Origin: Macrostomum lignano
Taxonomy: Eukaryota
DNA length: 64,000 bases
NCBI GenBank assembly: GCA_002269645.1
Contig: NIVC01001157.1
Span: 256,312 to 320,311, forward strand
Reading direction: 5' to 3'
Shown here: one piece after another, positions 1,199-53,591 of the stretch
How the letters are laid out: each line of letters opens with the position of its first letter
Numbering within the stretch: the first letter of the stretch is position 1
Translations under genes and position numbers: made by a program
Notes under the pieces: generated by a model
Told to the model about the DNA's origin: nothing
Databases searched by the model: none
What the model saw: the letters and a program-made list of their open reading frames with translations, nothing else

Positions 1199-1553
1199 AG
1201 TAGTAAGTAAAAGTACGCTTCCAGACCCAGAGGCACCTATTAAACAGCACATTTGAAGGGCTAGAGGGGGGACACGGGGGGAATCAAAAAAACACATGTA
1301 AACACTAAACAGCACAATTAAACACAATTAAACACCCCCAATACCCCCAATAACCCCATTTAATCAAAAACACTATTAACACACCCAATCAAATCCACAC
1401 ATCAGAAATCAAACCCCCATGTCCCCCCTCTAGCCCTTCAAATCCATTGTTTCAATAGGATCTGATCTAGAAGCGTACTTTTACATACTACTACATCCAA
1501 ACACACACAAACACTCTCTAACCCGTCGCCAGCGCCGCAGGCGCAAAGGGTCT
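1199..1553. repeat. Left TIR of inner Polinton
   Basis: Near-identical reverse complement of 12339-12694; begins AGTAGT. Confidence 0.93.
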
Positions 1554-1568
1554 TTTTCTGTTACGAAA

Positions 1569-1883
1569 ATGAACCGAGTTTACACCTTTTCAGTTAGTGA
1601 TACTTTTAAGACTGTTGCTAAAAATTCAGAGATTATAAAACAGCATATTTTGAATGGAATAATTGATGAAGTATATTTAAAATATGATGACAAAAAAGAT
1701 CTAAAACTTTATCCGTTAGATTTGGATGGTTTGTATGATCTAGAACGAGCGGGTGAGTTAATATTTCAACTTGGAGATTATTTAAATTCAGACGATTGGG
1801 AGGTTCGTTCAACTGATTCCGAGTCAACAAATAGTTCATATGAAACTAGTGACTCGGAGAATGAAATTGAAATTTTTATGTAA
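1569..1883 (+). CDS. Acidic hypothetical protein of inner Polinton (104 aa)
   Basis: AAAATG start immediately inside the TIR, open frame, acidic Ser/Thr-rich C-terminus; no family recognised. Confidence 0.5.
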   Translation: MNRVYTFSVSDTFKTVAKNSEIIKQHILNGIIDEVYLKYDDKKDLKLYPLDLDGLYDLERAGELIFQLGDYLNSDDWEVRSTDSESTNSSYETSDSENEIEIFM

Positions 1884-2091
1884 AAATGAATTATTACTCA
1901 GTAACAGAAACTACATTTATTGTGAAAAATATATTTAAAAAAATGAAGGTAAATCGTATCAATGATACGCATGCTTTTCATGATTATTCCTATATCGGAA
2001 ACGTGCCGGCCAATAATTATATTAGTAATAATATTGTTTTTCTTTGTTATAAAAAATTTACTACCCTGTTGCCTTAAGTAATTGTACGAAC

Positions 2092-2900
2092 TTAGTTCGC
2101 AGATATTATCTGGTTCTCATAAAAGGAACCCAATATTTCTTCACCATCTTTATCAGCAATGATATAGGTTGTAGGATTTGTATTTAAAACTTTACTGATG
2201 GTAAATTTCTCACTTATCTTCCAATATCCTTTTCTTCCCTTTTCAAACTTATCTTTCCATTTATAAATATAAACAGAATTACCAACTTTAAAACCTTTAG
2301 TTTTCTTTTTTTCAAACTCTCCAAAAGTGACTTTAACATTTTCAGGAGTGTTATAGCTTGTTGAGGAGTCATTTTTATAGCTGAATGATATGAATTATTA
2401 TAATCTTTCACAACGTCTGGTAATATTTTTACCCACTTTTGGTTACCATTAATACTAAACTGAAACCACAATTTCTTACCTAAAGTTCGATTAACTCTTT
2501 CAATCAGTGCGTTTTTGCTTTCTCCATAAATAGAATAAATTTTATTAATATACTCACCATTCGCGTCTTTTTTCCTTTCTTTTCCTTTTTCAAAATGATA
2601 CAATTTATACATATGATGATTGTAAAATTCTTTTCCTTCATCAACACACAACCTATCACTTTTTTCTCTAAGATTTTTAAAAGCAGCGGCAATCTCCTCT
2701 CCTTTTTTGGATTTCAAAGGAACAGCCCACGCATTTCGAGTAAGATATATCCAGATATAACTATCCAGTATGGTTAAGATATATTTATATCCTCTTTCGT
2801 TCGGCATTGACATTAAATCAGCATATCAAATTTCATTCTTTTTGAAGTTAATGATTTTTCTATAAAATTTAGGCTTTCGGTATTCTTTGTGAAGAACCTT
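2092..2900 (-). pseudogene. int: Polinton retroviral-like (rve/DDE) integrase, with a W-to-stop and a frameshift
   Basis: LHKEYRKP...NEI*YADLMSMP...YKYILTILD...AWAVPLKSK...LCVDEGKEF...ALIERVNRTL...YNNSYHSAIKMTP, plus C-terminal KVGNSVYIYKWKDKFEKG...TYIIADKDGEEILGSFYE. Confidence 0.88.
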
Positions 2901-2989
2901 TGCCTCATCAGAACTTAACCCACCACCACTTAATAACAAACACTCTACACAATTATTTTCATGTTGATTGTAATTAATTCCCAAACCAA

Positions 2990-3680
2990 ATTTCACTTTA
3001 GATTGCAAGATCTTTTTAACCATCCACCGAGTTAATCTCTGGCTTACCGATAATCCCTGTAAATTATCTAATCCTTCAATCATTTTTCTATCGGCTTCAT
3101 GCTTTAATCTTATGCTTCCTCAGGAGAATTCTTGTCAGCATCTCTGTATGCTAAGTCATGATAATATGCTAACCAATCAATACCATTGATGGGAATTGAA
3201 TCAGCTTTTGGAGTATCATCAGGATTTAATCTCAAATCCAGCCTAGTCCCGGGTAGTTTGCCCTCAATCTTTCGAAAGAGGCTGGAGCACACCTTAAGCG
3301 GTTAAATTACCACCCACCTCCGTCTGCTCTCTGAACCTTCTCCTTATACTTTTATACTTAGGAGCTTGACTGCGCATTGTCACCATGTCTTCAAGCTTGT
3401 TACCTTTGGGAAGAGGAGTTACCTCTGTTCCTTCAAAAGATTTCTCAATTGAAGTGGTACTTGAAGCTGTATGACGGGTTTCACGCAATTTGAAGGTGTC
3501 GCCACAAATAGTGACTAGCAGTAGCTTTGCTTCTACCACTCAGGCCACGGGTTAACCTGTGAAGTTCATTGATGGTAGGTGTAGTTCCCCAGTATATTTT
3601 CCAGTAGTAAAGATTGGTGGTAAGCCTGTTAGTCCTTTTTGAACATCTAAAAATCCACCTTCAAACAAAAGTTGGCTCAT
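2990..3680 (-). pseudogene. Parvovirus VP1-type phospholipase A2 gene, interrupted by a ~300-bp insertion and a 1-nt frameshift
   Basis: MSQLLFEGGFLDVQ...GELHLPSMNFTG / PGTRLDLRL...PINGIDWLAYYHDLAYRD...RLKHEADRKM...KVKFGLG; the FTGPG Ca-binding loop and HD motif match the Parvo_coat_N-type PLA2 pattern. Confidence 0.8.
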
Positions 3681-4292
3681 TTTTAATAGCCTTAAAAATA
3701 CAAGTTAACACTAATTGTTTTGCAAATTCTTTAATTGTTGGTTTTTTAACAAATTTAGTTTTATTATCCATAGCAGCTAGGTATCTTTTATTTGTCCAAT
3801 GTTCCGACTTTTTAATTTGTTCCTCATTGCGATAATCAAAAGATGAAGCAGGAATAAAATGATCCACATGCAAAACACCAATATAATCTTTTGGCAAATA
3901 ATAATGTTTGGTGAAATTTAACCAATCTTTAAAGAATTCAATTGGGCAACCAAGATAATAAATAGTATGGTTGTCTTTTTGACCATTAGTTGATTTTAAT
4001 AGTTTATTTATTCTAGTTCGCGTGTTTACAATAAGTTTGAAATTTTCATCTTCACTATATCTTGTTTTTCTATATTGATTAACTTTTTCTTTATTGTTTT
4101 GTGCATATATTAACTTTCTCTATAATTTTTTCTTTATTTTCAGCATAATATCGAGGATAGCAAATATTCTTTTTGATAAAATTTCCCACATTCTTTGCAA
4201 TTACCTTCATATCGATTCTGGGTTATTCTATATCTAAACTCAAGCAAAAAATTCTCTTCTTTACATCTACTACAGATCTTTTTAGTTTCCAT
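3661..4292 (-). pseudogene. HNH-type endonuclease (frameshifted)
   Basis: N-terminal CKEC zinc pair, TRYSEDENFKLIVNTRTRINKLLK...YLGCPIEFFKDWL, then LHVDHFIPASSFDY...HWTN...DNKTK. Confidence 0.65.
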
Positions 4293-4316
4293 TTTATGAA
4301 AAAATAAATTTAACAT

Positions 4317-4994
4317 CTAAATAATTCCTGTATGTCCAGCAGCTTTGGCAGCGGCTAAAACAAGTTTTCGTGGAGTTTTAAATCCTTCGCCAACAGCTCG
4401 TTTGTTATTTATTGATTGATCAATCCTTTTATACAAACTAGTGTTTTTAACACCCCCTACTCCTAACTCATCATAAAAAAATTTAGCACTTACTAATTCA
4501 TCCACAGTATATAAATCAGGATTAAACTTTACTCTAGGGTTCATAATAATATTATATGCTTCACCCAATTCTCTATATAGCTCATTCCGATTTTTATCAA
4601 CCCCACCAATTCGATAATTATCATTATCTAAATCCGTCACGCTAATACTTTGTGGAGAAGCTCTCTGATATTGTTCCCTACCACCCAGTTCTGCAGCCCT
4701 AATCTCTGCAACTCTCAATTGTGCTTGATCAACATCATAAGCGGGCGGTTCATCCTCAATTACATCTTCCTCTTTTGGCTCCGTATTCTTAGCAATTTTT
4801 TCAAGAAGCTCTTTATCAGTTTTTGTTAATTCACTAATTTTCCCCGTAATAGGATTAACAAAAGGAGCAGCAAATCTTTCACCAGCTAACTGTATTCCTA
4901 ACTTTCTTTTTTGTAAATCCCTAACAAAATCAGAATATCTTTGTTTCTCTTTATAAATCGCTAATTCACCATCAACATCCATAAATTGACTCAT
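4317..4994 (-). CDS. Polinton hypothetical protein (225 aa)
   Basis: Long open frame in AT-rich DNA, AAAAAATG start, head-to-head with the capsid gene; no family recognised. Confidence 0.6.
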   Translation of the reverse strand: MSQFMDVDGELAIYKEKQRYSDFVRDLQKRKLGIQLAGERFAAPFVNPITGKISELTKTDKELLEKIAKNTEPKEEDVIEDEPPAYDVDQAQLRVAEIRAAELGGREQYQRASPQSISVTDLDNDNYRIGGVDKNRNELYRELGEAYNIIMNPRVKFNPDLYTVDELVSAKFFYDELGVGGVKNTSLYKRIDQSINNKRAVGEGFKTPRKLVLAAAKAAGHTGII

Positions 4995-5028
4995 TTTTTA
5001 ACATAAAAAACTTTTTTAACTTAAAAAA

Positions 5029-5585
5029 ATGGCTGAAACAAAAAACAGATGGAGTGATAAGTATTATTTCAAAAAACCACGGCAATATATCAATGAGGTC
5101 AGGGCAAAAGATTTAAATTATACCCTACCAACAAGCGATAATTCAAACAATTTTACTACCGGAACGGTAACTTTTGATGTTGGTGCAACTAATACGATAC
5201 TAATGCAACTAAACGCATTTTCCGTGTTAGATGCTTATATACACGAAATGACGGAACAGCTCTTGCGGCCGGCGATATAGCCGATCGTTCTGGTATTGTT
5301 ATCGAGAAAGATTGGTTTTATAAATGTTTTTCCCAAGCGCAACTAAGAATTAACGGAGCTGAGGTTGAGACATCAACAAACCCCGCAGAGATTAATGGAG
5401 TTCTTAAACATTTAAATTATACTTATTTATCAAAACAGGTTGGTGATAATGTTGGATGGATGCCCGATAAGGGAGATGGTGGAGCAATAAATTTTCCTAC
5501 CATAGCACCAGCAGCCGGCGCAGATACCGCTGCTCTTATTAATTACCTTAATACAAACATAGTTCCCGTTGTTGTTGAGCTGTTG
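5029..5585 (+). pseudogene. N-terminal fragment of a Polinton double-jelly-roll major capsid protein (frameshifted, truncated)
   Basis: MAETKNRW...TVTFDV... then, in another frame, WFYKCFSQAQLRINGAEVETSTNP...VLKHLNY, resembling the conserved FSQxxxxxNGxxxE segment of Polinton MCPs. Confidence 0.6.
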
Positions 5586-6828
5586 AGCTAATTTTTTGTA
5601 CATTCAGCCGTATCTTGTTGTTTAGGACATTTGAGGGGTATGTTTGATGCTTCAAAATCAGCATATATTACAATTGGTTTTTTAATTGCCATAAAATGTT
5701 GTTGGAACTTTAATATTTGTTCTTTTTCATTGGGCATTACAACATTAGTAAATAATTAGGTTTTTAAGAGCACTTTCATTCTTTTTAAATGTGAAACAAT
5801 TTCTACATATTGGCATTCTATTTCCATTTGTTCTTAATAAGGAACAAATATCTTTTATGTATATATAATGTGTATTGTTTTCATGCTGTATGTACAATAA
5901 ATCGATTTGGTCTGGTGCTGTTATATCAGTTGCTGGCTTAATAAGAAAACATCTTTTTTTTATATCATTCTTTATCGTGTGCTTTAACCCAATCGTTTGG
6001 CTGTTCAATTGAAAATACATTAATATTTAACCCATTCATTTTTTCAATCTTATATATATCATCTATGGATACTGGGTAGGATATGTCTTTCATTATTATT
6101 TCATCCACATAATCTCTAATAATATATTTTATTTACATGCCATTTTACTTGTTTGTGATATTTTTGAATTAGTAAACACCATAATAAACACTTATCATCT
6201 TCATTGTTGGGATTTATGATCATGGGAGATGTAAATCCTGGATCCATATGTGATCGTCCTCGAAGAACTTCAATAGGAACAATCTTTACTGTGGCTGAGT
6301 TATAAGAAACAAAAATGAAGCCTGATCCGTTTTCTGTCATCTTATCAATCCATTTATCAAACTCTGCTTCGATATTATCAAATTGTTTGGTATATGTTCC
6401 CATTGATAAAAGTGACTTATATGATTCTTGTGAAAAGGTATTTATTACTTCAATTTCTGAAATTGCATTTATCATATTTGGTTTTTTAAATTCTGTTTCA
6501 ATTTCAATTTTATACCTAACTGGCTGCCGTTTGTTATTTTGTCTCATAGTATATTCGTCTAATACGGTCTTTAATTTTTCTTTCATTTGTTTAAAATATT
6601 CTTTATAATCTGTATTCATATCAATATTAATATTTATTATTTCAGCACCATTCGCTGGTGGTGATGCTGTTTGTTCGATAATATCTAATTGTGTTTGTAA
6701 ATTGATTTCATTTTCTGCTCTAATTCTAGCTTCTATTTCCGCCCTATCGGCAATTCGTTGTGCTTTGATTTGAGCTATTAATTGAGCTCTAAGTTCTGGG
6801 TTGTCGATTTGAGCTAAAATATTTCCAT
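5585..6828 (-). pseudogene. polB: 5' part of a second, different pPolB gene (GSG[W/F]-type N-terminus) truncated just after exonuclease motif I
   Basis: TENGSGFIF...LRGRSHMDP...IINPNNEDDKCLLWCLL; IDLLYI...THYIYIKDICSLL...ICRNC; PIVIYADFEAS at ~5650-5690. Confidence 0.8.
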
Positions 6829-6879
6829 TTTATAGAATAAAATTTATACAATGTTTGAATTATTGGTTTTTTAATTTTA

Positions 6880-7812
6880 TGTTTTGGGCATCCTGACCCT
6901 CCCCACAGGAGCTTATTCGAGTTCCGCTTTTGGTAACAGTAAGCCACTACCCATAACGTTTGCATTTAAGAAGATTCCTGAACCTGCTTTTGGTCGCATT
7001 TCGAGATATAATCCGCTTCCGTCATGTTTTTTAATTATGTTAAAATCTTTTCCTAATTTATTAAAAATTTTCTGAACCGCAGGTCTAAAATTAGCTCCGA
7101 TATTGTCGAAAAATCCTTTAGCTTCTTCGCCGGTTTTTCCAAGGTTTGACCGAATTCATGAAATTTGTCTGCGACAACTCCGCTTCCGTGGGTCATTCCT
7201 TGCAAGATTAAACCCTCACCGTGAGTTGTTCCTTTTAAAATTAAACCTTTTCCGGCTGCTAACCTAGCTTCTGCATTTTTTTTGTTCTGGTGTTGCTGAA
7301 CTACTATTAATTGTGTCTATAAGTTTTTGTTTGAATTGTGCGTCCTGCGTTATTTGCTGTCTTTGAAATTCTGCATCTCGTTTAGCTTTTTCATCCGCAG
7401 CTTTTTTGTCATTTACTGCTTTTGCAACTCCAGCCGCTCCACCAGCGACTCCTTCAGCCGCGGCAATTCCTCCAAAAATTATTGGGAGCAAAGTTGCAAG
7501 TGGAAGTATGCCCCCTTGTTTTTCTTTTAATTTTGCTCACTGTTTTCGGTTATCATGAATCCTTTTGCCTGCTAAACCGGCTGCTCCTGCTGCCCCAAGT
7601 CCTAAAAGGATTGGTAGAAAGGGTAGTAATCCACCATCCCTTTTTATGTGAGTCTCCATTAAAAATTTTACATCAGAATCTGTTAGCCTATAGGTTTTAC
7701 GGTTGTGCTTAAATGAAATGGGTCTTCCTTCTTGTGCATATTTTGCAGCGAGTTTAAAAGTATCAATATCATAATCCAATTTTTTACCTAAACGATCTAA
7801 TCTTTTTAACAT
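6880..7812 (-). pseudogene. Gly-rich virion core / membrane-active-like protein gene(s), frameshifted
   Basis: DGGLLPFLPILLGLGAAGAAGLAG (7537-7812), LPIIFGGIAAAEGVAGGAAGVAKAVNDKKAA (7264-7491) and repeated GxGL/GSG motifs (6884-7260); a pattern I recognise from Polinton structural genes. Confidence 0.5.
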
Positions 7813-8034
7813 TGAGTGACTATGTTTGTTATCATCTAAATTTAAGGTGTCTACTATTTCTCCTATAAAATAAAGACGATACTACTAAGCAACGGTAGAT
7901 CCGTCGATTTTGGAGGTGGGGTGGGTGTCAACCCTCCTCGCCTCTCATTGGCTGGCGCCCCGATCACTAGGTGATAGATACCCGTATCGATATCGGCGCT
8001 CGGCGCGCGCGCGCCGCAGGCGCGTGGCGCCAAG

Positions 8035-9435
8035 CGCCGCAGGCGCACCTACCGATATGTACCGATATGTATGCTCACCCTACCGACATGTACCCCGATA
8101 TGTACACCCTCCCGAGCCGCAGGCGCACCCTCCTGAGCCGCAGACGCCCATGCCGCAGGCGCCCCGAGTGTACACTCTCCCGAGCCAAAGGTACACTCTC
8201 CCCAGTACACTCTCCCCAGTACACTCTCCCGATATGTACACTCTCCACAGTACACTCTCCCGATATGTATGCATACACAGATATGTAGTCAACGATATTA
8301 GGCTAGTGAAAACTACTTATAGTAGGTGAAATTGAGTATATTTACATAAAAATGTAGATAAAACATATTGGTAGGTGAATAATGACGCATATTACATATT
8401 AAAATGTACATATTGGAGCATATGAGCAGCAAAAACACACAATGTAGGTGCATATTTGACAGAAATAGACAAAGCAGGTACTGTAAGCACTACATAGGTG
8501 GTAATACACACAGTATAAAGTAGGTTTACAAAGTGTACTTTCGATACATATCGGATTAATGTATAAAGCGGGTTTACAAGGCATGCATATATCAGAAGGT
8601 GTAGTTGTATAATACAGGCGCGCATGTATAATCAGATTATAGGCAAACGCCCAGGTGCAATTTCAACAGACGCGTAAATAATGTCACACCGACTAAAGAG
8701 TAAATATTGTCTAACCCGCAGGTGCATAAATATTAAACAAAAGCGGTTCGGGGAAATCCCAAAAGGGAGGTTTTAGCCGCCCGTTTTCGCCGCCCTAACC
8801 CTCTTATGGGTACAATTGCGTTGAAAATATTTCAAGTCATTAGGTTGTAAGACCCTCCATATTTTAGGTGGGTGGACTCGAGCCCGGGGCCAGCCCATTA
8901 CAGTTTTTTGGGCCGGCCCCTCTGCCAATTTCCTCCCTAGGTGCGAGCTATCAGAATTGGTCTTTTAACCCCCGTGTATACACACATAGAGGCCCCCCAG
9001 CTAGCGTCCCATTCTAACCTACCCAGTGTACAGTGTTGGGTTCCCCAAACCGCGTACAAAGAGAAATACCTTATCAGTCAATCTCCATACGCTCCCTCAG
9101 GGCTGTCTCGTACGCGGCCTCTTCCTCCACGCTCTCGAAGCAGTAGTCGGATGACTGGCAATGTGGAAATTATAACAGTCAATGTAGATAGAATATAGGC
9201 AAGGTATATGATTAGATGAGTTGTGTATACAGTGTAATATCTTACCAAACCTAAATCCTCCTCCAGCCGCCACAGGCGTAGAGACGCTGTATAGCGCACC
9301 AACGAAAGGTGCTCCTCCCAGTTGGTAGACCGGATAGCTACTGCAGGCTCATCCCACGCAGTCGGGCGCGCTCCCGGACCGGCCAGGTACGCCTCCGAGT
9401 CGGGGGCATACGAATTACGCCCTATTAGCCAATCC
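8035..9435. repeat. Left arm of a ~1.4-kb inverted duplication
   Basis: Reverse complement of 10661-12070 with a few substitutions and small indels; includes short TACACTCTCC and GCCGCAGGCGC repeats at 8035-8280. Confidence 0.93.
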
Positions 9436-10010
9436 TGGTGTAGCGTCTCCGCCTCCAGCACCTCCCGCAGATCAGCCCCTCGGGCCACCAAAGTATCAAG
9501 AACCCGATTAAAGGCTCTGACAAAGGTGGCTTGGGAGGGCAGGCCGCCAGGGTGGCGAGACCTCAACCAGTCAATGTCCCCGCGGAAAAATGAGGCCACA
9601 ATGCGAGGAAAGCGCTCACGAACCACGGCGATCTCCTCAGACATATCCTCGTCCTCATCGTCGAAGAGAAGGAGCGTAGAGGCTGATGATATTGAGGCCC
9701 GGTGGGAGGTAGTTGAAGCAGAGGCGGCAGCGGCAGAGACGGGCGCAGTAGAGACAGAGGCGGCAGCAGCAGCAGGGGCGCCGTTCACAACCCCGCCGAT
9801 AGCCAGCAGCGGGAGGTCAAAAACTTCAGAGTCGGTGTCGCTATCATAGGACATGGCCCAAGCTAGATATTGATCAGCCTCCCAATTATCGGTTCCGTTG
9901 TTTTCAGTGCCTAGGGGAACTATGTGTTCAGGGATATCACCCTCGAGGCTGGTTAACTCTTCAGTCGGGCGATTATTATCCCAGAGGTTGGATAGAGCTC
10001 GGCGGGCCAT
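9078..10010 (-). CDS. Orphan protein (310 aa), acidic/Ala-rich N-half
   Basis: CAACATGG start with a TATATAA box at ~10077-10083; homologous 5' end recurs at 14752-14790. Confidence 0.6.
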   Translation of the reverse strand: MARRALSNLWDNNRPTEELTSLEGDIPEHIVPLGTENNGTDNWEADQYLAWAMSYDSDTDSEVFDLPLLAIGGVVNGAPAAAAASVSTAPVSAAAASASTTSHRASISSASTLLLFDDEDEDMSEEIAVVRERFPRIVASFFRGDIDWLRSRHPGGLPSQATFVRAFNRVLDTLVARGADLREVLEAETLHQDWLIGRNSYAPDSEAYLAGPGARPTAWDEPAVAIRSTNWEEHLSLVRYTASLRLWRLEEDLGLVRYYTVYTTHLIIYLAYILSTLTVIISTLPVIRLLLRERGGRGRVRDSPEGAYGD

Positions 10011-10121
10011 GTTGGAATCAACAGAGAGTAAAGTATTAGAGCTAGGATAGGTTCGACTCTCCAGAGAGGAAACACTAATTATATAGACGGATCGAGTGAG
10101 GCGGTGCGAACCAATAGGAAA

Positions 10122-10655
10122 CTAGCAGTCCCAACCCTCGTTATACAGATTTTCCCAGGGCGGAGATTGGTAGGGTTTGAGACCCACAAGCTGAAGAACA
10201 TCCTCCTCAGTCCTGGCTACCGGAGGCGTGTCTGTCTTGACTCGCTTGGCTGGAGGGGGTGCCTCAGGTACCGGCTTGAAGAGCTTGTCCAAACGGGCGG
10301 CAAACATCCTGCGCCACAGTTCAGGCGTGAATTCGATCGTGTAGCGCCAATTAAACTTTGGGTCCTGATTGAGCCAATTGCGCAGCAAACGGATCCTCCC
10401 TCGCGAAGCTTCAACTGCCTTGAAATTGCCCAACAGGACCCGCTTGTTCACGTGAAGGCGGGCAGCAGCCTCCAGGTCAGGGCGCGCAGCTTCGAGCTTC
10501 TTCCACTCTGGCTCGCTCAAGTAGATTGCAGGGAAGCCGTCCTTCCACACTCCGGCCTCGTTGGTGTAGAGACGCCGAATTTCAATCAAGTTGTGTTCAG
10601 TTTCAAATGTGGGCTTCCGCGCCACAAAGTTTTCGTATAGAGAGATAGAAGACAT
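10122..10655 (-). CDS. Tandem PC4-like (putative ssDNA-binding) protein, 177 aa; original promoter replaced by the inverted arm
   Basis: LIEIRRLYTNEAGVWKDGFPAIYLSEPEWKKL fits the PC4 core pattern IDIRxY...GxxKxG..IxL..EQWxxL; a second weaker repeat ends TIEFTPELWRRM; close paralogue of 14090-14635. Confidence 0.6.
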   Translation of the reverse strand: MSSISLYENFVARKPTFETEHNLIEIRRLYTNEAGVWKDGFPAIYLSEPEWKKLEAARPDLEAAARLHVNKRVLLGNFKAVEASRGRIRLLRNWLNQDPKFNWRYTIEFTPELWRRMFAARLDKLFKPVPEAPPPAKRVKTDTPPVARTEEDVLQLVGLKPYQSPPWENLYNEGWDC

Positions 10656-10660
10656 GATTT

Positions 10661-12070
10661 GGATTGGCTAATAGGGCGTAATTCGTATGCCCCCGACTCG
10701 GAGGCGTACCTGGCCGGTCCGGGAGCGCGCCCGACTGCGTGGGATGAGCCTGCAGTCTGCTATCCGGTCCGGATAGCTACTGCTATCCGGTCTACCAACT
10801 GGGAGGAGCACCTTTCGTTGGTGCGCTATACAGCGTCTCTACGCCTGTGGCGGCTGGAGGAGGATTTAGGTTTGGTTAGATATTACACTGTATACACAAC
10901 TCATCTAATCATATACCTTGCCTATATTCTATCTACATTGACTGTTATAATTTCCACATTGCCAGTCATCCGACTACTGCTTCGAGAGCGTGGAGGAAGA
11001 GGCCGCGTACGAGACAGCCCTGAGGGAGCGTATGGAGATTGACTGATAAGGTATTTCTCTTTGTACGCGGTTTGGGGAACCCAACACTGTACACTGGGTA
11101 GGTTAGAATGGGACGCTAGCTGGGGGCCTCTATGTGTGTATACACGGGGGTTAAAAGACCAATTCTGATAGCTCGCACCTAGGGAGGAAATTGGCAGAGG
11201 GGCCGGCCCAAAAAACTGTAATGGGCTGGCCCCGGGCTCGAGTCCACCCACCTAAAATATGGAGGGTCTTACAACCTAATGACTTGAAATATTTTCAACG
11301 CAATTGTACCCATAAGAGGGTTAGGGCGGCGAAAACGGGCGGCTAAAACCTCCCTTTTGGGATTTCCCCGAACCGCTTTTGTTTAATATTTATGCACCTG
11401 CGGGTTAGACAATATTTACTCTTTAGTCGGTGTGACATTATTTACGCGTCTGTTGAAATTGCACCTGGGCGTTTGCCTATAATCTGATTATACATGCGCG
11501 CCTGTATTATACAACTACACCTTCTGATATATGCATGCCTTGTAAACCCGCTTTATACATTAATCCGATATGTATCGAAAGTACACTTTGTAAACCTACT
11601 TTATACTGTGTGTATTACCACCTATGTAGTGCTTACAGTACCTGCTTTGTCTATTTCTGTCAAATATGCACCTACATTGTGTGTTTTTGCTGCTCATATG
11701 CTCCAATATGTACATTTTAATATGTAATATGCGTCATTATTCACCTACCAATATGTTTTATCTACATTTTTATGTAAATATACTCAATTTCACCTACTAT
11801 AAGTAGTTTTCACTAGCCTAATATCGTTGACTACATATCTGTGTATGCATACATATCGGGAGAGTGTACTGTGGAGAGTGTACATATCGGGAGAGTGTAC
11901 TGGGGAGAGTGTACCTTTGGCTCGGGAGAGTGTACACTCAGGGCGCCTGCGGCATGGGCGTCTGCGGCTCAGGAGGGTGCGCCTGCGGCTCGGGAGGGTG
12001 TACATATCGGGGTACATGTCGGTAGGGTGAGCATACATATCGGTACATATCGGTAGGTGCGCCTGCGGCG
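10661..12070. repeat. Right arm of the ~1.4-kb inverted duplication
   Basis: Reverse complement of 8035-9435; carries the 3' half of the 310-aa ORF (10659-11042). Confidence 0.93.
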
Positions 12071-12218
12071 TATGTGATGTGAGCTGGGTTAATTTTTTTT
12101 TCGCTTCGTGATAAAATTGAGTTCTTCTTATATGCATTTATATAACATTTAGCTGCGTGGGTGGGGTGATGAATGTCCACATTCCATTTAGCTGCGTGGG
12201 TGGGGTGATGAATGCCCA

Positions 12219-12283
12219 CATTCCATTAAGGCCAGATTTTTGAAAACGAAAACGAAAACGAAAAATCTGGCCTTAATGGAATG
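12219..12283. repeat. Short hairpin: ~23-bp inverted repeat around a (GAAAAC)n loop, preceded by a 39-bp tandem duplication
   Basis: CATTCCATTAAGGCCAGATTTTT ... AAAAATCTGGCCTTAATGGAATG. Confidence 0.75.
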
Positions 12284-12338
12284 TTGAGTGCGTGGGTGAG
12301 CTGGCTAAAAATAGCTTCTATTCTTTCTCTACCATTCT

Positions 12339-12694
12339 AGACCCTTTGCGCCTGCGGCGCTGGCGACGGTTAGAGAGTGTTAGTGTGTGTTTGGATGTAG
12401 TAGTATGTAAAAGTACGCTTCTAGATCAGATCCTATTGAAACAATGGATTTGAAGGGCTAGAGGGGGGACATGGGGGTTTGATTTCTGATGTGAGGATTT
12501 GATTGGGTGTGTTAATAGTGTTTTTGATTAAATGGGGTTATTGGGGGTATTGGGGGTGTTTAATTGTGTTTAATTGTGCTGTTTAGTGTTTACATGTGTT
12601 TTTTTTATTCCCCCCCGTGTCCCCCTCTCTAGCCCTTCAAATGTGCTGTTTAATAGGTGCCTCTGGGTCTGGAAGCGTACTTTTACATACTACT
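12339..12694. repeat. Right TIR of inner Polinton
   Basis: Reverse complement of 1199-1553; ends ACTACT followed by TSD CACCAC. Confidence 0.93.
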
Positions 12695-13859
12695 CACCAC
12701 ATATTCAACGCCCTTTGCCCTAAACTTAGGCAGGTCGCGTTGATTATACAGCCGGGCCGTAAAACCTGCAGAGAATGAATGGGGGTGTGAGTCAGCCTGG
12801 GTCTGTCTGGGGAATGGGGGCTAGATAACTCACCCGGTCCGGTAACAGATTCCGGCTGTGTTGGCGGGACAAACGCGTCTGAAAAAAACACAAGGAGATA
12901 AAAACCAGAAGAATCTGTCATTTTCCTGGCCCCAGCGTGTTCGGACAAAGAGGCACCCCTCCCAACTCTATCCCAGCAAGTTCCTATCAGCCCTGGCACC
13001 CCTCTGTCGCAGCACCCTAACAGCAGCAATTCACCAACTCTATCCTGCAACTATTTCTTATCAGAGTCTTTGTTTACTCTTCTGCACCCCTCCAATTCTC
13101 ACAGACCCTGCAGCTGTTGCTGCTAACCCTGCTGAAACGTGTCAAGCCCTCCCCAGCAACTGTGTCTGTTTTTGCTACAGACCCCGCTAATTTCTTATCA
13201 GTACCCCAACCGCAGCACACCCCCCGCCTGTCTGGACACGCGCAGCACCCTATCTGCAGCCCCAGTCTTCGTTTACGCTGTCCCTGCCAGCCCGTGTAGC
13301 TATCACAGCACCGCTAAATCTACCTAGCACGTGTCTGCAATTTTTTAACCCTAACGATTATCTGTTACAGACCCTGCCTATTTCTTATCAGCAACGTACC
13401 CTCCTGCCTAGCAACTCCAGTCTAGACCCCTGCAGCTTTCGCAGCAGCCCCAGTCTTTGTTTACTCTGCTGCACCCCTCCAATTCCCTGCAGCAGTTAAC
13501 CCTAGCAACTCTCTGTCACCGCACCCCAACGATTATCTGTTACAGACCCTGCCAATTTCTTATCAGCACCCCAGCTGCAGCCTGTCTGGGCAGCTCCGTA
13601 CACGCACCCTATCTGCAGCCCCAGTCTTTGTTTACACGCGCAGCTCACCGTGCTGAAACTTGTCTAGACAGCGCTAAACCCTTGCAGCTGTCGCAGCAGC
13701 TCACCCCACTGCTAATTCTTATCGGTACCCTGCCGCAGCACCCTAGCAACTCTAGTCTAGACTGATAAACAACTGGCCAGAAATTAATTAAAACCTACCA
13801 TAAAGACGCTGCCTCTTATCAGCCAGGAAAGCAGTTGGTGCTGCGCTGCGTTTAGCCAT
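12695..13859 (-). pseudogene. polB: 5' end of the outer Polinton pPolB gene: exon 1 13859-13799, predicted intron 13798-12766, exon 2 from 12765 to the insertion site
   Basis: ATG at 13859 gives MAKRSAAPTAFLADKRQRLY+G|GTAGGT; acceptor ATTCATTCTCTGCAG|GT; joined frame GFTARLYNQRDLPKFRAKGVEYVV continues in frame as HISNTEDLWEVF at 1192 once the insert and one TSD copy are removed. Confidence 0.7.
13020..13760. repeat. Degenerate tandem repeat, unit ~170-195 bp, ~4 copies
   Basis: CAG(CCCCA)GTCTT(T/C)GTTTAC recurs at ~13062, 13257, 13445 and 13617 with shared downstream blocks. Confidence 0.7.
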
Positions 13860-13914
13860 TTTAAAAACAGAGAGCGGAGAGAGAAGGATTATCTCTCTAC
13901 CCCGGTTCTGGGGG

Positions 13915-14045
13915 TCTGTATATATACTAAAAATCTGCTCAGCTCGACTGTTATTGGTCAAATCACCAAAAACCAACCAAAATCATCAGAAATCGTCCCC
14001 AAAATCACCCCCACCCCACCCTCCATCCGGGGGTATATAAGGCGC
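13915..14045. promoter_or_regulatory. Divergent promoter region between polB and the PC4-like gene
   Basis: TATATATA at ~13919 upstream of the minus-strand ATG 13859; TATATAA at ~14034 about 55 bp upstream of the plus-strand ATG 14090. Confidence 0.55.
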
Positions 14046-14089
14046 TGCACGGCTGTCAGAGAGCTCTGTGCTGCTGCTACTGCTAAATC

Positions 14090-14635
14090 ATGTCTTCTAT
14101 CTCTGTATACGAAAACTTTGTGGCGCGGAAGCCCACATTTGAAACCGAGCACAACTTGATTGAAGTTCGGCTGCTCTACACCAACGAGGCTGGAGTGTGG
14201 AAGGACGGCTTCCCTGCAATCTACTTGAGCGAGCAAGAGTGGAAGAAGCTCGAAGCTGCGCGCCCTGACCTGGAGGCTGCTGCCCGCCTTCACGTGTACA
14301 AGCGGGTCGTGTTGGGCAATTTCAAGGCTGTCGAGGCTTCGCAAGGAAGGATTCGTTTGCTGCGCGATTGGCTCAACGTGGACCCAAAGTTTAATTGGCG
14401 CTACACGATCGAATTCACGCCTGAACTGTGGCGCAGGATGTTTGCCTCCCGTTTGGACAAGCTCTTCAAGCCGGCACCTGAGGCCCCACCGCCTGCCAAG
14501 CGAGCCAAGACAGAGACCCCTCCGGTAGCCAGGACTGAGGAGGAAAATCTGCAGGACGTTCTTCAGGTTGTGGGTCTCAAACCCTACCAATCCCCGCCCT
14601 GGGAAAATATGTATGACGAGGGTCGGCACTGGTAG
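14090..14635 (+). CDS. Tandem PC4-like protein (181 aa) of the outer Polinton
   Basis: Intact ORF with TATA box and AAATCATG start; LIEVRLLYTNEAGVWKDGFPAIYLSEQEWKKL motif. Confidence 0.62.
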   Translation: MSSISVYENFVARKPTFETEHNLIEVRLLYTNEAGVWKDGFPAIYLSEQEWKKLEAARPDLEAAARLHVYKRVVLGNFKAVEASQGRIRLLRDWLNVDPKFNWRYTIEFTPELWRRMFASRLDKLFKPAPEAPPPAKRAKTETPPVARTEEENLQDVLQVVGLKPYQSPPWENMYDEGRHW

Positions 14636-14974
14636 TTTCCTATTGGCTCACACCACCTCACTGGGATCTACTATATAATTAGTGTTTCCTCTCTCTCCAG
14701 AGAGCCAAACCCCATCCTAGCTCTAATACTTTACTCTCTGTTGATTCCAACATGTCCCGCCGAGCTCTATTTAACCTCTGGGATAATAATGTGAAAGTAT
14801 GAAAGTGTGACAGTACTTTCATTTAAAAATGGCCCCACTGGTGTCCATTATAAGCGTTCTCATTGGTTGATAAGATTATACAAAAGAGAGACTGGAAATG
14901 ACTTGTTACTAAAAATAACTCAACACTGCTAATGCGATCGTATTTCAAATTGGCTAAGTCATAACCCGTAACCG

Positions 14975-15629: not shown

Positions 15630-15832
15630 TTAAGTGAAAAAGGCTGGCCGGCTTCCGCCTTTACTTAAAAAAACGTTTTCCGCTCGCGTTTGAGCTCTTA
15701 GCCAATAAGCTCACCCGCAAGAGCCAATGCGGGTTTGAGGTGGTAGTGGTTGCTGAGTCTTGGTTATGCGCAGTTCAGTTAAGACGTGGCTAAAAATTTG
15801 CTAAATCATGCTAGCTAAAATCGATTATGGTA

Positions 15833-16260
15833 TCATTCTGCTCTATCAACCCCCAGCTCTTTCAGCAGTCTTCCTAGATCTTTACTTGGCGCATGCAATA
15901 CAAAACCCGCCCCTTTACCCAAACAGCCGCCAAGCCCCAACCCCAACTTTGTCTTTCCAAAAATAACAGCTTTAACTAGCTTCCGAGCGATCGATTCCTT
16001 ACACCCGCTGGAAGTCCTCATATTGTCTAATCTCCTAAGCATTTCTTTGTCCCAGCAATTCTACTCTGGAAAATCCCTATACTAAACGTCGTGCCACATG
16101 CAGACAGAGCTCGTTCAACGGCTCAGGCCCAGGATTTGGATTATTGTTTTTATATAACTGAATTTCAAGCGGATTCAAAGGCCCGCAATATTTGTAGCCA
16201 GGAATTGTCCAGCCTTTGTTTTCGATGAGGAAGCAGTTTAATTAATCCGTGAGCATCAGC
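15833..16260 (-). pseudogene. Parvovirus-type PLA2, copy 2
   Basis: WTIPGYKYCGPLNPL...EPLNEL...HDV*YRD...KEMLRRLD...GKTKLGLG. Confidence 0.78.
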
Positions 16261-16288
16261 CATTTTTTTGAAAAAATAAATTCTAAAA

Positions 16289-16795
16289 ATGGCAGAAGAA
16301 AAACTTAAATCTGTCTACTACAGTGACAAAGGATTGTTTTGTAGGAAAAAATGCCGTTAGTAAACTCATGGAGCTGAGTAAGGAACCAAAAGCTACAGTA
16401 GAAAAGTGGCTCTCCAAGCAAGCAGTCTACCAAGTCTATTTCCCACCTGTTCAATTTACAAGACCTCACTTTGAGATCTATACGAGCGTAAACCTAATGA
16501 GGCGCACCAAGCAGATATTCTGTTTCTCACCAATGACTCAGGCTACAAGTATGCTCTCACAGTTATAGACATTGCCTCCAGATATAAGGAAGCGAGACCA
16601 CTTAAGACAAAGAAGTCAGAAGCAGTTGCAGCTGCGCCATCCAAGAAATTTACAAAAACTCTCAGCTTACATACCCCCAAACCTTTATGACTGATCCTGG
16701 CAAAGAATTCATGGGTGCAGTCAAATCCCTTATGGAAAAGAACAATACGAAAATGCGCTACGGAAGAACTGAGCTCCACAGAGACCAGGCTGAGG
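16289..16795 (+). pseudogene. int: Polinton integrase, copy 2 (frameshifted, 3'-truncated)
   Basis: MAEEKLKSVYYSD...VEKWLSKQAVYQVY...RPHF...PNEAHQADIL...YKYALTVIDIASRYKEARPLKTK...MTDPGKEFMG...HRDQ. Confidence 0.85.
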
Positions 16796-42869: not shown

Positions 42870-43462
42870 TTTGTCTACAAATATATATAAGTAGAGTGTT
42901 TTAAATAGTTTAGAATTAAAAAGTAACTGAAAGTTACAGAAAATGGTTTAAAGTAAATCAGGATTTACTTACGAAGATACTATGCGAATTCGAGCGTCCG
43001 CTAGAAACAATTTCTCCTATTTCTCCTATTTCTTTCAGCAGTCTGCCTATTTCTTTACTGGGCGCGCGCAATACTGCTCTCTCAACCCCCAGCTATTTCA
43101 GCAGTCTTCCTAGTTCTTTATTAGGAGCATGCAATACAATTAGAATGCCCCTCTCCCATTAGAAAATTCCAGAAAATTCTAGACTACAATCTTGGAGTCA
43201 AGCAGGGAAAAAACAATCGATATAGCTCAGTGTACGATAGAAAGTGAGGGGTGAGAATTCTCTGTACACAGAGCATAGGGTGATGAGGTGAGGAGCATGA
43301 AGGAGAAGCATGGTGGAAAGAGAGATTTTAGCCGAAACCAGTGTGCTCAAGACTGTACACTTGTGTGGAGAGAATAGAAGCGAAGGCCAGAAGGCCAGAA
43401 AACTTAACTCTTCTCCCAAACACCCGCCAATTCAAAAAATGAGCTGAATTTTCTTGCTTTAA

Positions 43463-43900
43463 TCATTCTGTTCTCTCAACCCCCAGCTCTTTCAGCAGTC
43501 TTCCTAGTTCTTCACTTGGCGCATGCAATACAAAACCCGCCCCTTCTCCCAAACAGCCGCCAATCCCCAACCCCAACTTTGTCTTTCCAATAATAACAGC
43601 TTTAACTAGCTTCCGAGCGATCGATTCCCTCCACCCCCTTGAAGTCCCCATATTGTCTAATCTCCTAAGTATTTCTTTGTCCCAGCGATTCTTCTCCTCA
43701 GGAAAATCCCTATACAGTGTACTTAATGTCGTGCCACATGCAGACAGAGTCTAGCTCGTTCACAGGCTCATGTCATGCCCAGGATTTGGATTATTGTTTT
43801 TATCTAACTGAATTTCAAGCGGATTCAAAGGCCCGCAATATTTGTAGCCAGGAATTGTCCAGCCTTTGTTTGGATGAGGAAGCTTTTCTATCAGTCCATG
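43463..43900 (-). pseudogene. Parvovirus-type PLA2, copy 3
   Basis: Close DNA homologue of 15833-16260 (WTIPGYKYCGPLNPL; GKTKLGLG). Confidence 0.78.
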
Positions 43901-43959
43901 TGAATTTAAGTTACCACCAGAGCGTTGCATTTTATTAAAAATTTTCTTAAAAAATTACA

Positions 43960-44330
43960 GGGCAGAAACCTCAAAAGCTCTACTACAGCGACAAAGTATT
44001 CTTTGTAGAAAAAAAATGCTGTCACCAAACTCGCAGAACTAAGTAATGAATCAAAACAAACAGTTGAAAGATGGCTATTCAAGCAAGCACTCTACCAAGT
44101 CTATTTCCCACCAGTAAAATTTGAAAGGCCCCATTTCAGTATTTATAAACCGAATCAGGTGCATCAGGCAGATTTACTCTTTATGCCCAATGACTCAAGG
44201 TTCAAGTATGCTTTGACTTTCATTGACATTGCCTCCAGATATAAGGAAGCTCGCCCACTCAAGACGAAGAAGTCAGAAGCAGTTGCAGCTGCCCTCCAAG
44301 AAATTTACAAAAACTCTCCTCTAACCTATC
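43960..44330 (+). pseudogene. int: Polinton integrase, copy 3, cut by a Gypsy fragment
   Basis: RWLFKQALYQVY...RPHF...PNQVHQADLLFMPNDSRFKYALTFIDIASRYKEARPLKTK. Confidence 0.85.
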
Positions 44331-46920: not shown

Positions 46921-48378
46921 CTAACGCGAGGTCCTCCAAAGGGGGCGTCTTCTTCTAGATCTAACGGAATCGGAGTCGTGTGCTCCTATCGGTTAATCTA
47001 GGATAATCCAAATCAACAGTCAGTAATCCTCTAAGGGTATCGGAATCGTTCCGCAGATCCTATCCAATCCCTTAAGAAAATGGGAGGCCTCGAATAGTCT
47101 CAGTAAAGTCAACGGATCAGCAACGGCCGGCCGGCAATAAAATCGCTCTCAGTAGTATAGGAAAAGTAGGTTTGAGCGCAACCCATTTTGAAAAATCACA
47201 AAAAAACAGATAAAAATCGACTAAAAACAGGTGAAAATTGTCTGAAAACAGTGATTTTAGTGATTTCAAAACTTTTGAAAAATTGCTTTTTGCGCGATTT
47301 CGTGACTAAAACCACAAGAAAGTTGTGATTCGTGGGTTAAAATAACCTATTTTCAGGTTTAATCATTTCAAAACTAGCATCAAATTTAATAATAGTCATT
47401 TCTCCCATTGCATAACGCCCTTCAATAAGCCAATCTTACTAGCTTTGCTTTTAACGATCAGTCAGCTACCATCTATGCATAAAAATTGTCCACTCGAGGC
47501 AATACAATGCTTCTACAAAAGTCAATAATTTGCTCCACATTCGCTTTGTCCCGAGACTTTAAAATGGCTTTAATGCTGTTTTAGATTTTTACTTAAAGAT
47601 AATAGAAGACATTCAAGAACATGGAGTGCTTATTTAAATTTTTCGTGGCATGCATACTCGACTACTAGAGCACTAACCGCAGCACTCAACATTTCTATTG
47701 GCTGCCTAAATTTCTGCCAAAACCAAAATGTTTGCCAAAATTTCTGCCAAAAAGTGTTTGGTTTTGGCATCCAATAGGAGTGGCTCGTGCAAATCTTTTG
47801 TGTTCACCCTCTATCTAGCTGTAAAAAAGACATGAAGTGGGCCACGCAAGTTACAAACGAACAATGCTCGCAACCCTACCTACGGACGATTTCACTAACC
47901 CTTTTCTAAATTATGTATCTTAAAAATGGAACAAAAAGTATGAGAAATTCTCCTCAAAGCAATTGTTATATTGTGACTCAGCTTTAACGTCGTGCGAAAC
48001 CCACACTGAGTGGTCAAATAGTATGGTCAAATAGGCTCTCGCAGGAACTCTAACAATTGGTCAAGGACAGCTTCCATTACATAAAGTTAAATTTAATTCA
48101 CGTAAATCAAAATTGCTTTAATGAAAATTAATTATAAAAATTTAAAAAAGATAACAGCGGAGATACTATTTTTTCACTCCTTAAAATCCGTTCTTAGGTT
48201 ACACTTCGCATAACTTATGCAAATAATAATAATGGTTTTGTATTTTAAATATTAAAGTAGTGATTATTAAAACAGAAACAAAAAGTCCTCAAACGCCTAT
48301 GAAGAACAAAATTAAAACATTAGAGCAATTTATTAATATTGACAAATTAGTCCATGGTCACCACAAGTCATCAATCAT

Positions 48379-48912
48379 CTAGTTTTGGTTAGGTGATGAA
48401 GCAGCAGTGCCTCGGATGTCAGCAGTGCCTCGGTTGTCAGCAGTGCCACGGTTGTCAGCAGTGCCTCGGTTGTCAGCAGTGCCTCGGTTGTCAGCAGTGC
48501 CTCGGTTGTCAGCAGTGCCACGGTTGTCAGCAGTGCCTCGGTTGTCAGCAGTGCCTCGGTTGTCAGCAGTGCCTCGGTTGTCAGCAGCGATCTCATAGGG
48601 TGGTGGAAGGCTATCTTCTTCAGTATCCAAATCACCAATCGCTTGCATGGCTTGAGATTGGCTTTGATAGGATAGTGCAATAGCTTGCATGCTTTTTCTT
48701 TTTGACACATTTTCCTTCAGAAGCTTCAGGAGCTTATCCTCCTCCGTAAAGGACTTGAATGTATCTAAACCTTGTAGCTTATTGATTAGTCTCTCAGAAT
48801 CTAGATCTGCAAATATAGTTAATGGCATGAGCCTTCGAATCTTTTGCTTTGTGAGTTCGAATTCCTTTCGATGATCCCTATATCTCTTGCGAAGTTCATT
48901 TTCGGATGGCAT
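48379..48912 (-). CDS. Orphan protein (177 aa) with PPPY motif and (ADNRGT)x10 tail; copy in left arm
   Basis: Intact ORF, 18-bp in-frame repeat GCTGACAACCG(A/T)GGCACT; identical protein at 59028-59561. Confidence 0.55.
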   Translation of the reverse strand: MPSENELRKRYRDHRKEFELTKQKIRRLMPLTIFADLDSERLINKLQGLDTFKSFTEEDKLLKLLKENVSKRKSMQAIALSYQSQSQAMQAIGDLDTEEDSLPPPYEIAADNRGTADNRGTADNRGTADNRGTADNRGTADNRGTADNRGTADNRGTADNRGTADIRGTAASSPNQN

Positions 48913-49720
48913 GTCTATTAAAGCTTTTTATTGTTGCAATGAATTTGGAGAGAATTATCAGCCATCTTTCCAAATTCATTCCTGTATTAATATTATGTTA
49001 AAATACAAAAGCAGCGCATAAACTCAATTCTCATTGGTGCCTCATTGATGACAACCAATGAGAAAGCGACACCGGGTGAATGGAATGCAACTTTGCAGGC
49101 TCATGCCAGATGCAGAAAAAATTCTATCCACATGAGTCAGAATTGTAGTTACTTGAGATGCATGGCATTTTTTTCTGCATTTCTTCATTTCTAAGGCATT
49201 TTCTAGAAATAATGGTTTATTGAAGGCCATTTTTATAAAAAATAAATTTAAGTAATCTACATTTAAGTGTCCTATGAAAGGAGGTAGATTTCTCTTTTAC
49301 TAAGTTGGATGTGGCGCTTATCATATCAAAAGTTTCAAAAAGACCCTCTCCATTGTACAAGTCTAGTGGCTCACCTATCTTGCGTGAATCTATATTTAGT
49401 AACAAAAAACACAAAAGACTTTCAGACACAAAAGACCTCTCGTGAGCACAAAAGAGGCTAGTTTATTTGAACTGCACAAAATGTCTGCCAAAAAGTTTTT
49501 AATTTTAGCATCCAATAAAAATGACTCAGGCAAGTCGCTAGAAAATGTACCACGTCAGATAGAATAGATAGGTATTAATGAATGATAATGTCTCCTTAGC
49601 ATCCACCCCAAAAACAGATACTGCAGTTTTCAAATTTGAGGTTGCTGCCAATTATGCTCACATCTGTCTCATTTAACAAATAGCTCACAGCACCCACCCC
49701 AAAAACAGATACTGCAGTTT

Positions 49721-50227
49721 TCAAATTTGAGGTTGCTGCAACAACTCATCCGCTGCCTCTTCATCCAGCTTCTTCATGACTTCCGGCAGATGTTGTATGC
49801 ACGACCGAATCTGATACAGTGATAGCGTGCAGACATGTAGGCGTGGATGTGCCTGTGCCAAACTCGCAAGCTTCATTAGAAAGTTGATCCACGCATTGCT
49901 GAAGCGGGTGGATTTCTTTAGTTCCTTGAACTGATTCTTCGAGAGATGACGCTTCATATTGTTGTAAATTGCTCCTGCTTGGATGCCATACTTGACTCCA
50001 TAGTTATTAAGACGCTTCAGCTTGTTGAATATCTGGATAAGTTGATCCTTTACAACATGAATAGTAAATCTACCAGTACAGAATTCTTCATTCGATGGAT
50101 CCCGAGCATCCACAGGTTCGCACGATGTGCGGAAAATCTTCTTCAGTTCCTCGATTCGAGCTTCTTTTTCATTAGAGGTTTTAGGTAGGCTATCCGTGAT
50201 AGTGGATAAAGGAAACCGTACTCTTGC
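49721..50227 (-). pseudogene. 5'-truncated copy of the 223-aa ORF at 57548-58219
   Basis: Arm boundary at 50227 removes the first ~55 codons. Confidence 0.75.
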
Positions 50228-50596
50228 TAAACCTAATTAAACCTAAATATTTATTTGAATATTTTAATATATTTTTACTTTTTGAGTTAGTAGTACTAGG
50301 TTTATCGTTTATGTCTATTTAATACTATTGAAATTCCCTAAGTTTATTAATTTATTTAGTATGTTTAATTTATCTAATCTAGTTAAAGCCTTGATAAATC
50401 ATCTTATAATTTTTATTGGGCTTTTATTTTATTCTTTATTTATATCTAGACTTAGTCCTATTCTATATTGTTTTATCATCAAGTATTTTAATGCTATTAG
50501 CCATTAATCATATTAATGCTTGTAACCAAATTAAATAAATGCTATTTTATTTTTTCAGCTAATTATTGGTCACTTCATTTCTAACCTTTCTTTAAA

Positions 50597-52569: not shown

Positions 52570-53591
52570 GGTTTTGAATTTTTTAACAATGATTCAGTTG
52601 ATGCTCTTGTTCAACTGTATGATCCTATTGATGAGCCATTTTTCAATTTCCAGCATATTGATGAATCTGTTGCCAATGCCATTGATTTCTTTGTAAATAG
52701 TTTTTTTTTTCATAGGTAAGCCATCAACAACTGAATGCATGTATCCTGTTTCGGAAATAAAATGTTCCTGTGTCGCCTATGTGAATCCCCAGTCAACACT
52801 TTTACTAGTTGATGACTTAGTGCCAGACTATGGGTGAAACCATTTTATTTCACTATTTAATTAAACACATTAGCATCGTTTTTGGTTGCCTAAACTTGAC
52901 TATTTTAAAACTGCAAAGTAAGGCTAATTCTGCACTAACTCTATATCAGTTTTGTGAATTTAAAAATAATCTGGCTTCACTTTTGGTGCTCCAGTTGGTT
53001 ATAATTTTTTTGAACAATGTCCAAAAGCATTTTCTAACATTCTTTGCAACTGAAACTGTTTCAAACTCCTTTAAATGCTACCATAATTTTTTAAATTAAA
53101 TTTGCTATATTGTACAACCATTCATGAAAGCAATTGTTAATAAAGTGGATGCATATGGTAATAACTTGTGTTTACAAGTTGCCTCTACTTTTTTCTCCAT
53201 GTTTTCTTTTTAAGGAGATTAGATAGAGTGAAGTATGTCAAATTAAAATTACTCACTATTAAGGATGTGCAAACATAAATGAGCGCCCTCCCCCTTTCGC
53301 AGAGACTAGAAAAAAATCTAGAGGGGGCTAGCAAATTTTTGCCAAAATACAGAGCCACATCCTCCACCTCACTCCTGGGTCCACCACCCCCTTGAAAAAT
53401 TTGTGGTAGTGCTACTGGTTATATATTTCTTAAATAATAAATATTTTTTAATTTGTGCATATCAAATATATATGATAATCGAAATAATGAAATGTAACTT
53501 ATTTTGATTCTACTACACTTTATATTAAATGTAAATGTTTAAGACAGGTTAATTATATTTTTTTTTCAACCAAAATTTCATTTCAGCTGCA

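Follow-up and report, generated by a model that had tools for sequence, protein, structure and literature searches.

We examined a 64,000-nt stretch of the Macrostomum lignano genome (GCA_002269645.1, contig NIVC01001157.1, positions 256,312 to 320,311 of the forward strand), called the window here, within which all positions are counted. Near its left end lie two nested elements. The outer one is interrupted by an inner element of 11,496 nt (1199–12694), composed of a left terminal inverted repeat (TIR, 1199–1553), an AT-rich block (1554–7887), a short left flank (7888–8034), a palindrome of 4 kb (8035–12070), a right flank that we call H (12071–12338) and a right TIR (12339–12694). The palindrome, which holds a PC4-like gene and a second gene (gene 2), is the subject of this analysis. 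A preliminary description, made from the sequence alone, had taken it for a copy-back product of strand-displacement replication riding inside the inner element.

Structure of the palindrome and its turn-around

Self-comparison of the window gave one inverted match in this region, 8035–9435 against 12070–10661, over 1425 columns. It delimits a left arm (8035–9435) and a right arm (10661–12070) around a spacer of 1225 nt (9436–10660), 4036 nt in total, so that the 1.4-kb arms and 1.2-kb spacer described earlier are indeed present: two complementary arms and a unique loop, as in a copy-back genome. On the minus strand, the left arm carries the native 3′ part of gene 2, with a candidate intron and last exon, followed by about 1 kb of non-coding DNA, short tandem arrays and the end motif CGCCGCAGGCG. 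The spacer, unbroken with the left arm, holds the PC4-like gene and the 5′ part of gene 2, also on the minus strand. The right arm, on the plus strand, is the inverted copy and starts inside gene 2. Global alignment of the arms gives 1384 matches, two substitutions (8165/11940 and 9243/10877; 0.14% of 1386 aligned bases) and three indel events: a 14-nt tandem unit at 8191, one nucleotide at 8993/11126 that was lost in the right arm, and a net gain of 24 nt in the right arm near 10757–10781, which the aligner splits into 19 and 5. The single-nucleotide differences and small indels reported before are thus real features of this sequence, and a plain mirror artefact is out of the question, given that the two arm ends have different flanks.

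Support from independent sequencing was sought in four of 24 runs, one from each of four studies (X1, X5, X6 and X9), which were compared as contigs over 9436–14084; the contig results given here come from 32 listed pieces of 1967, 24 of 385 loose ends and 15 of 22 joints. Contigs lose rare variants, so that the absence of a join among them is no proof either way, and their summed depth is not copy number.

The turn-around (10660/10661) lies where it had been placed, 5 nt upstream of the ATG of the PC4-like gene at 10655. The plus strand reads CATGATTT up to the junction and GGATTGG after it; from the same base the outer copy, the first parent, goes on with AGCAG, and the left arm, the second parent, arrives with ACACCA. 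No base is common to both parents and none was added. An AATC micro-homology had been suggested at this point, but GATT, which is AATC on the other strand, stands twice, once on each side of the turn-around. We reject a micro-homology join because it would not have left both copies. The native join, in which 10660 meets 14084 of the outer copy, is present in X5 at the same base (depth 216, short side 47 letters). Past 10660 the native piece breaks off and, with a blunt join, the opposite strand takes over from the point that corresponds to 9435; it is followed back as far as the very base that begins the left arm. This single junction accounts for every base of the palindrome. The turn-around shows no special fold (z −0.70). 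Two gene models appeared to cross it (P0014 and P0049), and their alignments proved to be spurious extensions.

Gene content, donor and polarity of the arms

The PC4-like gene (10122–10655, minus strand) is an open frame of 177 aa that has lost the TATA-like box present in the outer copy at 14034. We call it PC4-like on the strength of an atlas match (0.90, 199 shared features) and of its modeled fold (pLDDT 76.5), for which the top six Foldseek rows are human PC4 with probability 1.00, rmsd near 2 Å and a best E-value of 4.7e-3. The Pfam cut-off lends no support: the inner copy reaches 13.9 bits against a gathering score of 25 for PC4 (PF02229; E 0.04), and the outer copy has no PC4 row. None of six candidate relatives in viral contigs and none of 80 in metagenome contigs held up. 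Gene 2 (9074–10010, minus strand), listed earlier as a 310-aa ORF, has a candidate exon at 10010–9246, a 91-nt candidate intron at 9245–9155 and a further exon at 9154–9077, and it keeps a TATA-like box at 10085. GT and AG sites flank 9245–9155, and six sibling gene models contain a 26-residue C-terminal piece identical to 9154–9077; gene 2 is therefore probably spliced, and the 310-aa frame is probably its first exon read through into the intron. No Pfam family and no atlas match was found for it.

The family to which the outer element belongs encodes a family B DNA polymerase that is protein-primed (PolB): frame 3–419 has 44 protein relatives at E ≤ 3e-10, of which 43 are named Macrostomum lignano DNA polymerase and 43 carry PF03175. 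The content of the palindrome had been described as homologous to the outer genes at 14090–14790. This is true of spacer positions 9972–10660, which match 14085–14790 in inverted orientation, but the outer copy holds only about 13 codons of gene 2 before it is cut at 14790, and a counterpart exists there for just 689 of the palindrome's 4036 nt. Over 687 aligned bases, 47 substitutions separate the inner copy from the outer one. Of the 44 polymerase models, which are automated, often antisense and not necessarily independent loci, 14 contain part of the PC4 block; 12 of these 14 are 96.7–100% identical to the inner copy against 76.5–92% to the outer one, and the remaining two are distant from both. 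Model P0008 was excluded from alignment A1 as a chance match driven by repeats. Because of the 12 closer models and the 47 differences, the donor is, on these comparisons, a sibling of the common subfamily and not the outer copy. The inner element does carry genes of the polymerase-bearing family into which it inserted, as had been proposed, only not those of the copy that it interrupts.

The left arm and the spacer are one continuous native piece of this family. Gene 2 reads unbroken through 9435/9436, three X1 contigs carry the arm on into spacer sequence at the position of 10661, and in automated gene models at other loci gene 2, PC4 and PolB follow one another as they do in the outer element. 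The right arm is a copy that is both truncated and derived, with its own states at 10877, at 11126 (the 1-nt loss) and at the 24-nt insertion. Two observations establish this direction. First, the right-arm state at 10877, position +3 of the candidate splice donor of gene 2, is rare in the runs: the left-arm base accounts for the full depth in X5 (4028/4028), X9 (209/209) and X1 (48/48) and for 963/1014 in X6. Second, the 24-nt insertion contains an inverted piece whose sequence is that of the left arm in reverse complement. This small templated fold-back (10757–10794, plus strand, z −2.44) runs forward, reverse-complement and forward again about 100 nt past the junction, and it may record a further, small template switch. 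A sibling without some 126 nt (10745–10873), from beside the small fold-back site to the candidate splice donor, occurs in all four runs.

At the insertion site, gene 2 is two residues shorter in five of five sibling models than in the left arm. The local variant is thus common to both arms, with an elaborated form in the right one, and sharing it favors a single template. This bears on the possibility that a deletion joined a head-to-head pair of sibling elements without any copying back, for which a blunt junction would suit end joining and close copies abound (44 polymerase clusters; an X1 arm contig with three differences in 510 letters). Yet fused siblings would hardly share a variant absent from all five models, end at the same base and differ so little, and we consider such a fusion very unlikely.

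Origin of the palindrome

The explanation that we favor, with slightly better than even confidence, is a single fold-back template switch on one template, whose product was captured in a defective chimeric element. We infer the following order of events. A polymerase working inward on one sibling element from its array-rich end would have passed the PC4 start, changed strands shortly after it and returned over 9435–8035; some 100 nt further on, another, tiny switch would have produced the 24-nt insertion. The product would then have been joined, without target duplication, between the AT-rich block and the end made of H and TIR, at copies of CGCCGCAGGCG. Finally, the whole defective chimera would have been moved by its 355-nt ends, with integrase acting in trans, and would have landed in a polymerase gene belonging to a different member of the family. 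As to which enzyme made the switch, our judgement leans slightly toward host break repair and gives the family's own protein-primed polymerase a little less than an even chance. The geometry of the copy-back proposal stands, with one native pass over 8035–10660 that turns onto the other strand and retraces the left arm. Where the proposal had a micro-homologous junction, we find a blunt one, and the donor is a sibling copy. The arms do not run to the right end of the inner element, which is 624 nt away, and nothing favors strand displacement over host repair. The palindrome is probably a functionless passenger.

Several observations weigh against this reconstruction. Template switches usually use micro-homology, and the turn-around is blunt. 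The best run contains only 0.60 of the sampled words, the contig comparison begins at 9436 and so excludes the left junction (8034/8035), and none of the 32 listed contig pieces of 1967 bridges 10660/10661. As the X1 arm contig shows, very close siblings exist, so that the near identity of the arms is by itself no proof of one template. The searches made with the arm end, the TIR and the gene models (below) turned up no true end of the donor family. Moreover, a second element in the window has the same shape with no polymerase seen in it, and the shape thus does not single out protein-primed replication. This element (47141–60799) has 3087-nt inverted arms with four substitutions; a 211-aa frame is whole at the right (57584–58219) and cut at 50227 at the left, its spacer has weak Transposase_21 and DUF1258 matches, and AGTAGT stands 10 nt inside each end, with no direct duplication longer than 2 nt seen.

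Part of this also suits an artefact of assembly or library, i.e., a chimeric read, an amplification chimera or two family copies joined in error. Ligation chimeras typically have blunt joins, and the loss of one nucleotide in a homopolymer is typical of long-read error. The turn-around is unbridged in the listed pieces, the right-arm states were not seen in X5, X9 or X1, and the window holds a second long inverted repeat. Published M. lignano assemblies were hard to build: by REAPR, 63.95% and 31.92% of their bases are error-free (PMC5730564). However, both ends of the inner element share one 6-bp duplication at a single PolB site, the right end of the palindrome (12070/12071) is bridged in an independent run (X9 record 30: 52 + 150 letters, no differences, depth 30), the arm ends differ in their flanks, which is impossible for a plain mirror, and a templated 24-nt insertion would be unusual as a consensus error. 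Since contigs drop rare variants, their silence on the right-arm states proves nothing. An artefact thus seems quite unlikely to us, though less so than a fusion of siblings.

A fold-back switch could also have left something more specific: a fossil copy-back defective genome, synthesized by the polymerase of the element itself in the form of a free linear molecule, with CGCCGCAGGCG as the family end or as a fixed hairpin exit point, and captured later by another lineage. We regard this as unlikely. If true, the genome itself would here give direct evidence of strand-displacement replication in Polinton-type elements and of copy-back products shed by them. To our knowledge, the replication mode of Polintons has been inferred rather than shown, and a verified copy-back product ending at the replicon end would be a rare footprint of it. 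Like the copy-back defective genomes of viruses such as Sendai virus (PMC10025937), the palindrome has two complementary arms and a unique loop, probably from one strand switch, and genes lost or cut. Unlike them, it is DNA, integrated and nested, with arms that were not shown to reach a replicon end and no free or replicating form shown. The palindrome works like a copy-back product, and we stop short of counting it among copy-back defective genomes.

Template switching is described for the protein-primed, strand-displacing polymerase of phi29 (PMC4974454, PMC4176320), including subgenomic DNA (Murthy 1998, as cited in PMC4974454) and a switch to the displaced strand (PMC4176320). The likeness lies in the protein-primed family B polymerase of the donor family (PF03175) and in a break at a transcription start region; in contrast, phi29 products accumulate as free molecules from genome ends, and here nothing indicates which polymerase acted.

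Inverted-repeat growth in transposons has already been described, and such expansion is reported for Polintons (per PMC3573991, which cites Jurka 2007 among three references). In non-autonomous Galileo elements, too, internal sequence recurs in inverted orientation on the opposite side, and matching TIRs surround an interior of another lineage (PMC3573991); here, by contrast, the new arms stand apart from the TIRs, by 268 nt of H at the right and 6.5 kb at the left. At C. elegans eri-6/7 (bioRxiv 10.1101/2024.01.15.575659), rearranged Polinton remnants likewise form repeats, duplications and inversions within a single locus, but there TIR recombination inverts host exons with a phenotype, whereas the palindrome involves element coding sequence and no host gene. 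As it stands, we have one rearranged defective copy, a kind of change described before in other transposons. No earlier description of this palindrome was found in the literature searched, which lacked most subscription papers. Were a transcript to run across both arms, it would fold into a 1.4-kb hairpin that could silence a multicopy family; no such transcript is known.

The inner element and its insertion site

The inner element is an insertion, as had been described. Its left TIR (1199–1553, plus strand) starts with AGTAGT and is preceded by CACCAC; its right TIR (12339–12694, minus strand) is followed by CACCAC, and one contig bridges this TIR and the target site (X1 record 6: 38 + 134 letters, no differences, depth 10.8). 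The TIRs, 355 and 356 nt long, differ by four substitutions in 354 bases and three single-base gaps. Within each (1199–1492 and 12399–12694) there is an internal inverted end of about 80 nt, 83% identical, so that each could be read as a 294-nt mini-element running from AGTAGT to ACTACT. The TIR length and the 6-bp duplication fall within the range of Polinton/Maverick elements (100–1500 bp and 5–8 bp), and the length of 11,496 nt is below their 13–25 kb (bioRxiv 10.1101/2023.08.22.554363; further features in PMC8502044). The inner element is at best a defective Polinton derivative.

Polinton marks in the AT-rich block (33% GC, with broken genes) are weak: an integrase-like piece in a broken frame matches the PFV integrase at E 4e-4 and Pfam rve at E 0.11, below the cut-off, and a pX-like piece matches Adeno_PX at E 0.003. 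None of 18 candidate relatives of the integrase-like frame in viral contigs was retained, and phages gave no match. Fragments of the block may also be polymerase or capsid pieces; no polymerase match was obtained there with Pfam or further searches. Around 5585–5591, frames on the plus and minus strands both end abruptly, which suggests the join of an internal deletion or inversion. ACTACT occurs at the boundary between AT-rich and GC-rich DNA (7881–7887), where the reverse complement equals the first 7 nt of the TIR; it is possibly a cryptic end, possibly chance.

Both flanks of the palindrome are structured. The left one (7888–8034; 65% GC) contains hairpins, with a fold z of −3.58, and an extra copy of CGCCGCAGGCG at 8012. 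In H, a 39-nt tandem repeat is followed by a hairpin with a 24-bp stem near 12218–12285 (z −7.15); neither has an equivalent on the left. The duplication and the hairpin, which has a loop of GAAAAC repeats, span 12146–12285, and related copies are present in X1, X6 and X9. Three Rfam matches of the hairpin to miRNA precursors are far under the gathering score, and we take them as chance.

The motif CGCCGCAGGCG occurs five times in the window (1533, 8012, 8035, 12060 and 12349) against 0.02 expected, and every copy lies within the inner element: they mark the two arm ends and stand close to the inner ends of the two TIRs. It resembles a hairpin by a 4-bp stem only; the motif by itself, in 36 nt, shows no special fold (z −0.37). 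DNA patterns built from the arm end and the TIR had no matches elsewhere, and pieces beyond the arm end, sought in gene models at loose settings, gave chance matches only.

The placement of the motif suits another history, in which the whole inner element (1199–12694) derives from the polymerase family's own end: copy-back or repair from the other end would have given it 2-kb inverted ends (TIR, H and arm), and the AT-rich block would later have replaced the left H. Internal sequence was recruited into longer TIRs in Galileo (PMC3573991). Depth at 12226–12380 is arm-like (2248/378/231 in X5/X6/X9), and H is joined to a variant TIR in X6 and X9, as loose ends at 12327. Nevertheless, depth drops at 12071–12225 to 284/42/42/0.45 (X5/X6/X9/X1; the near-zero X1 cover was not used as evidence) against 2351/402/274/245 at 11141–11295, X6 record 19 has 68 other letters ahead of 12075, and no remnant of H stands on the left. 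The four differences of the TIR pair in 354 bases against two in 1386 between the arms (Fisher p 0.018) argue mildly against one event for both. We hold this extension of the TIRs to be rather improbable, on a par with a captured defective genome.

Finally, the 4-kb unit could be a foldback-type transposon in its own right with 1.4-kb TIRs. It has long inverted arms with short tandem arrays at their ends, and depth of the distal arm is several-fold above the rest (11606–12070 in X5 and X6, 11761–12070 in X9). However, it has no transposase, no target duplication (GCCAAG precedes it and TATGTG follows), and the inner end of its arm cuts a gene that siblings hold whole, next to PolB. Arm and spacer are multicopy, and no second copy of the unit 8035–12070 is among the listed pieces. 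An independent transposon is accordingly the explanation to which we give least credit, and a fold-back switch captured by the inner element remains our preferred account.

The inner element sits in a protein-primed polymerase gene. On the minus strand, the part of PolB downstream of the insertion occupies 1–1198, with the outer element leaving the window at position 1. On the other side (12695–14790) follow the PolB start (minus strand), repeat-rich intergenic DNA, the outer PC4-like gene (14090–14635, plus strand) and the start of gene 2. Sixteen of the 44 polymerase models read straight from 12695 to 1198, and the empty site is present in X5 and X1 as loose ends at 12691. The outer polymerase gene has candidate GT-AG introns at about 965–755 and 438–394, with sibling models breaking nearby; together with the candidate intron of gene 2, they may point to an intron-bearing polymerase family. 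Introners in dsDNA viruses are the topic of a preprint. Just to the right of the outer-element cut lies the first of two copies of another repeat (15832–16663 and 43462–44318), which are 81% identical.

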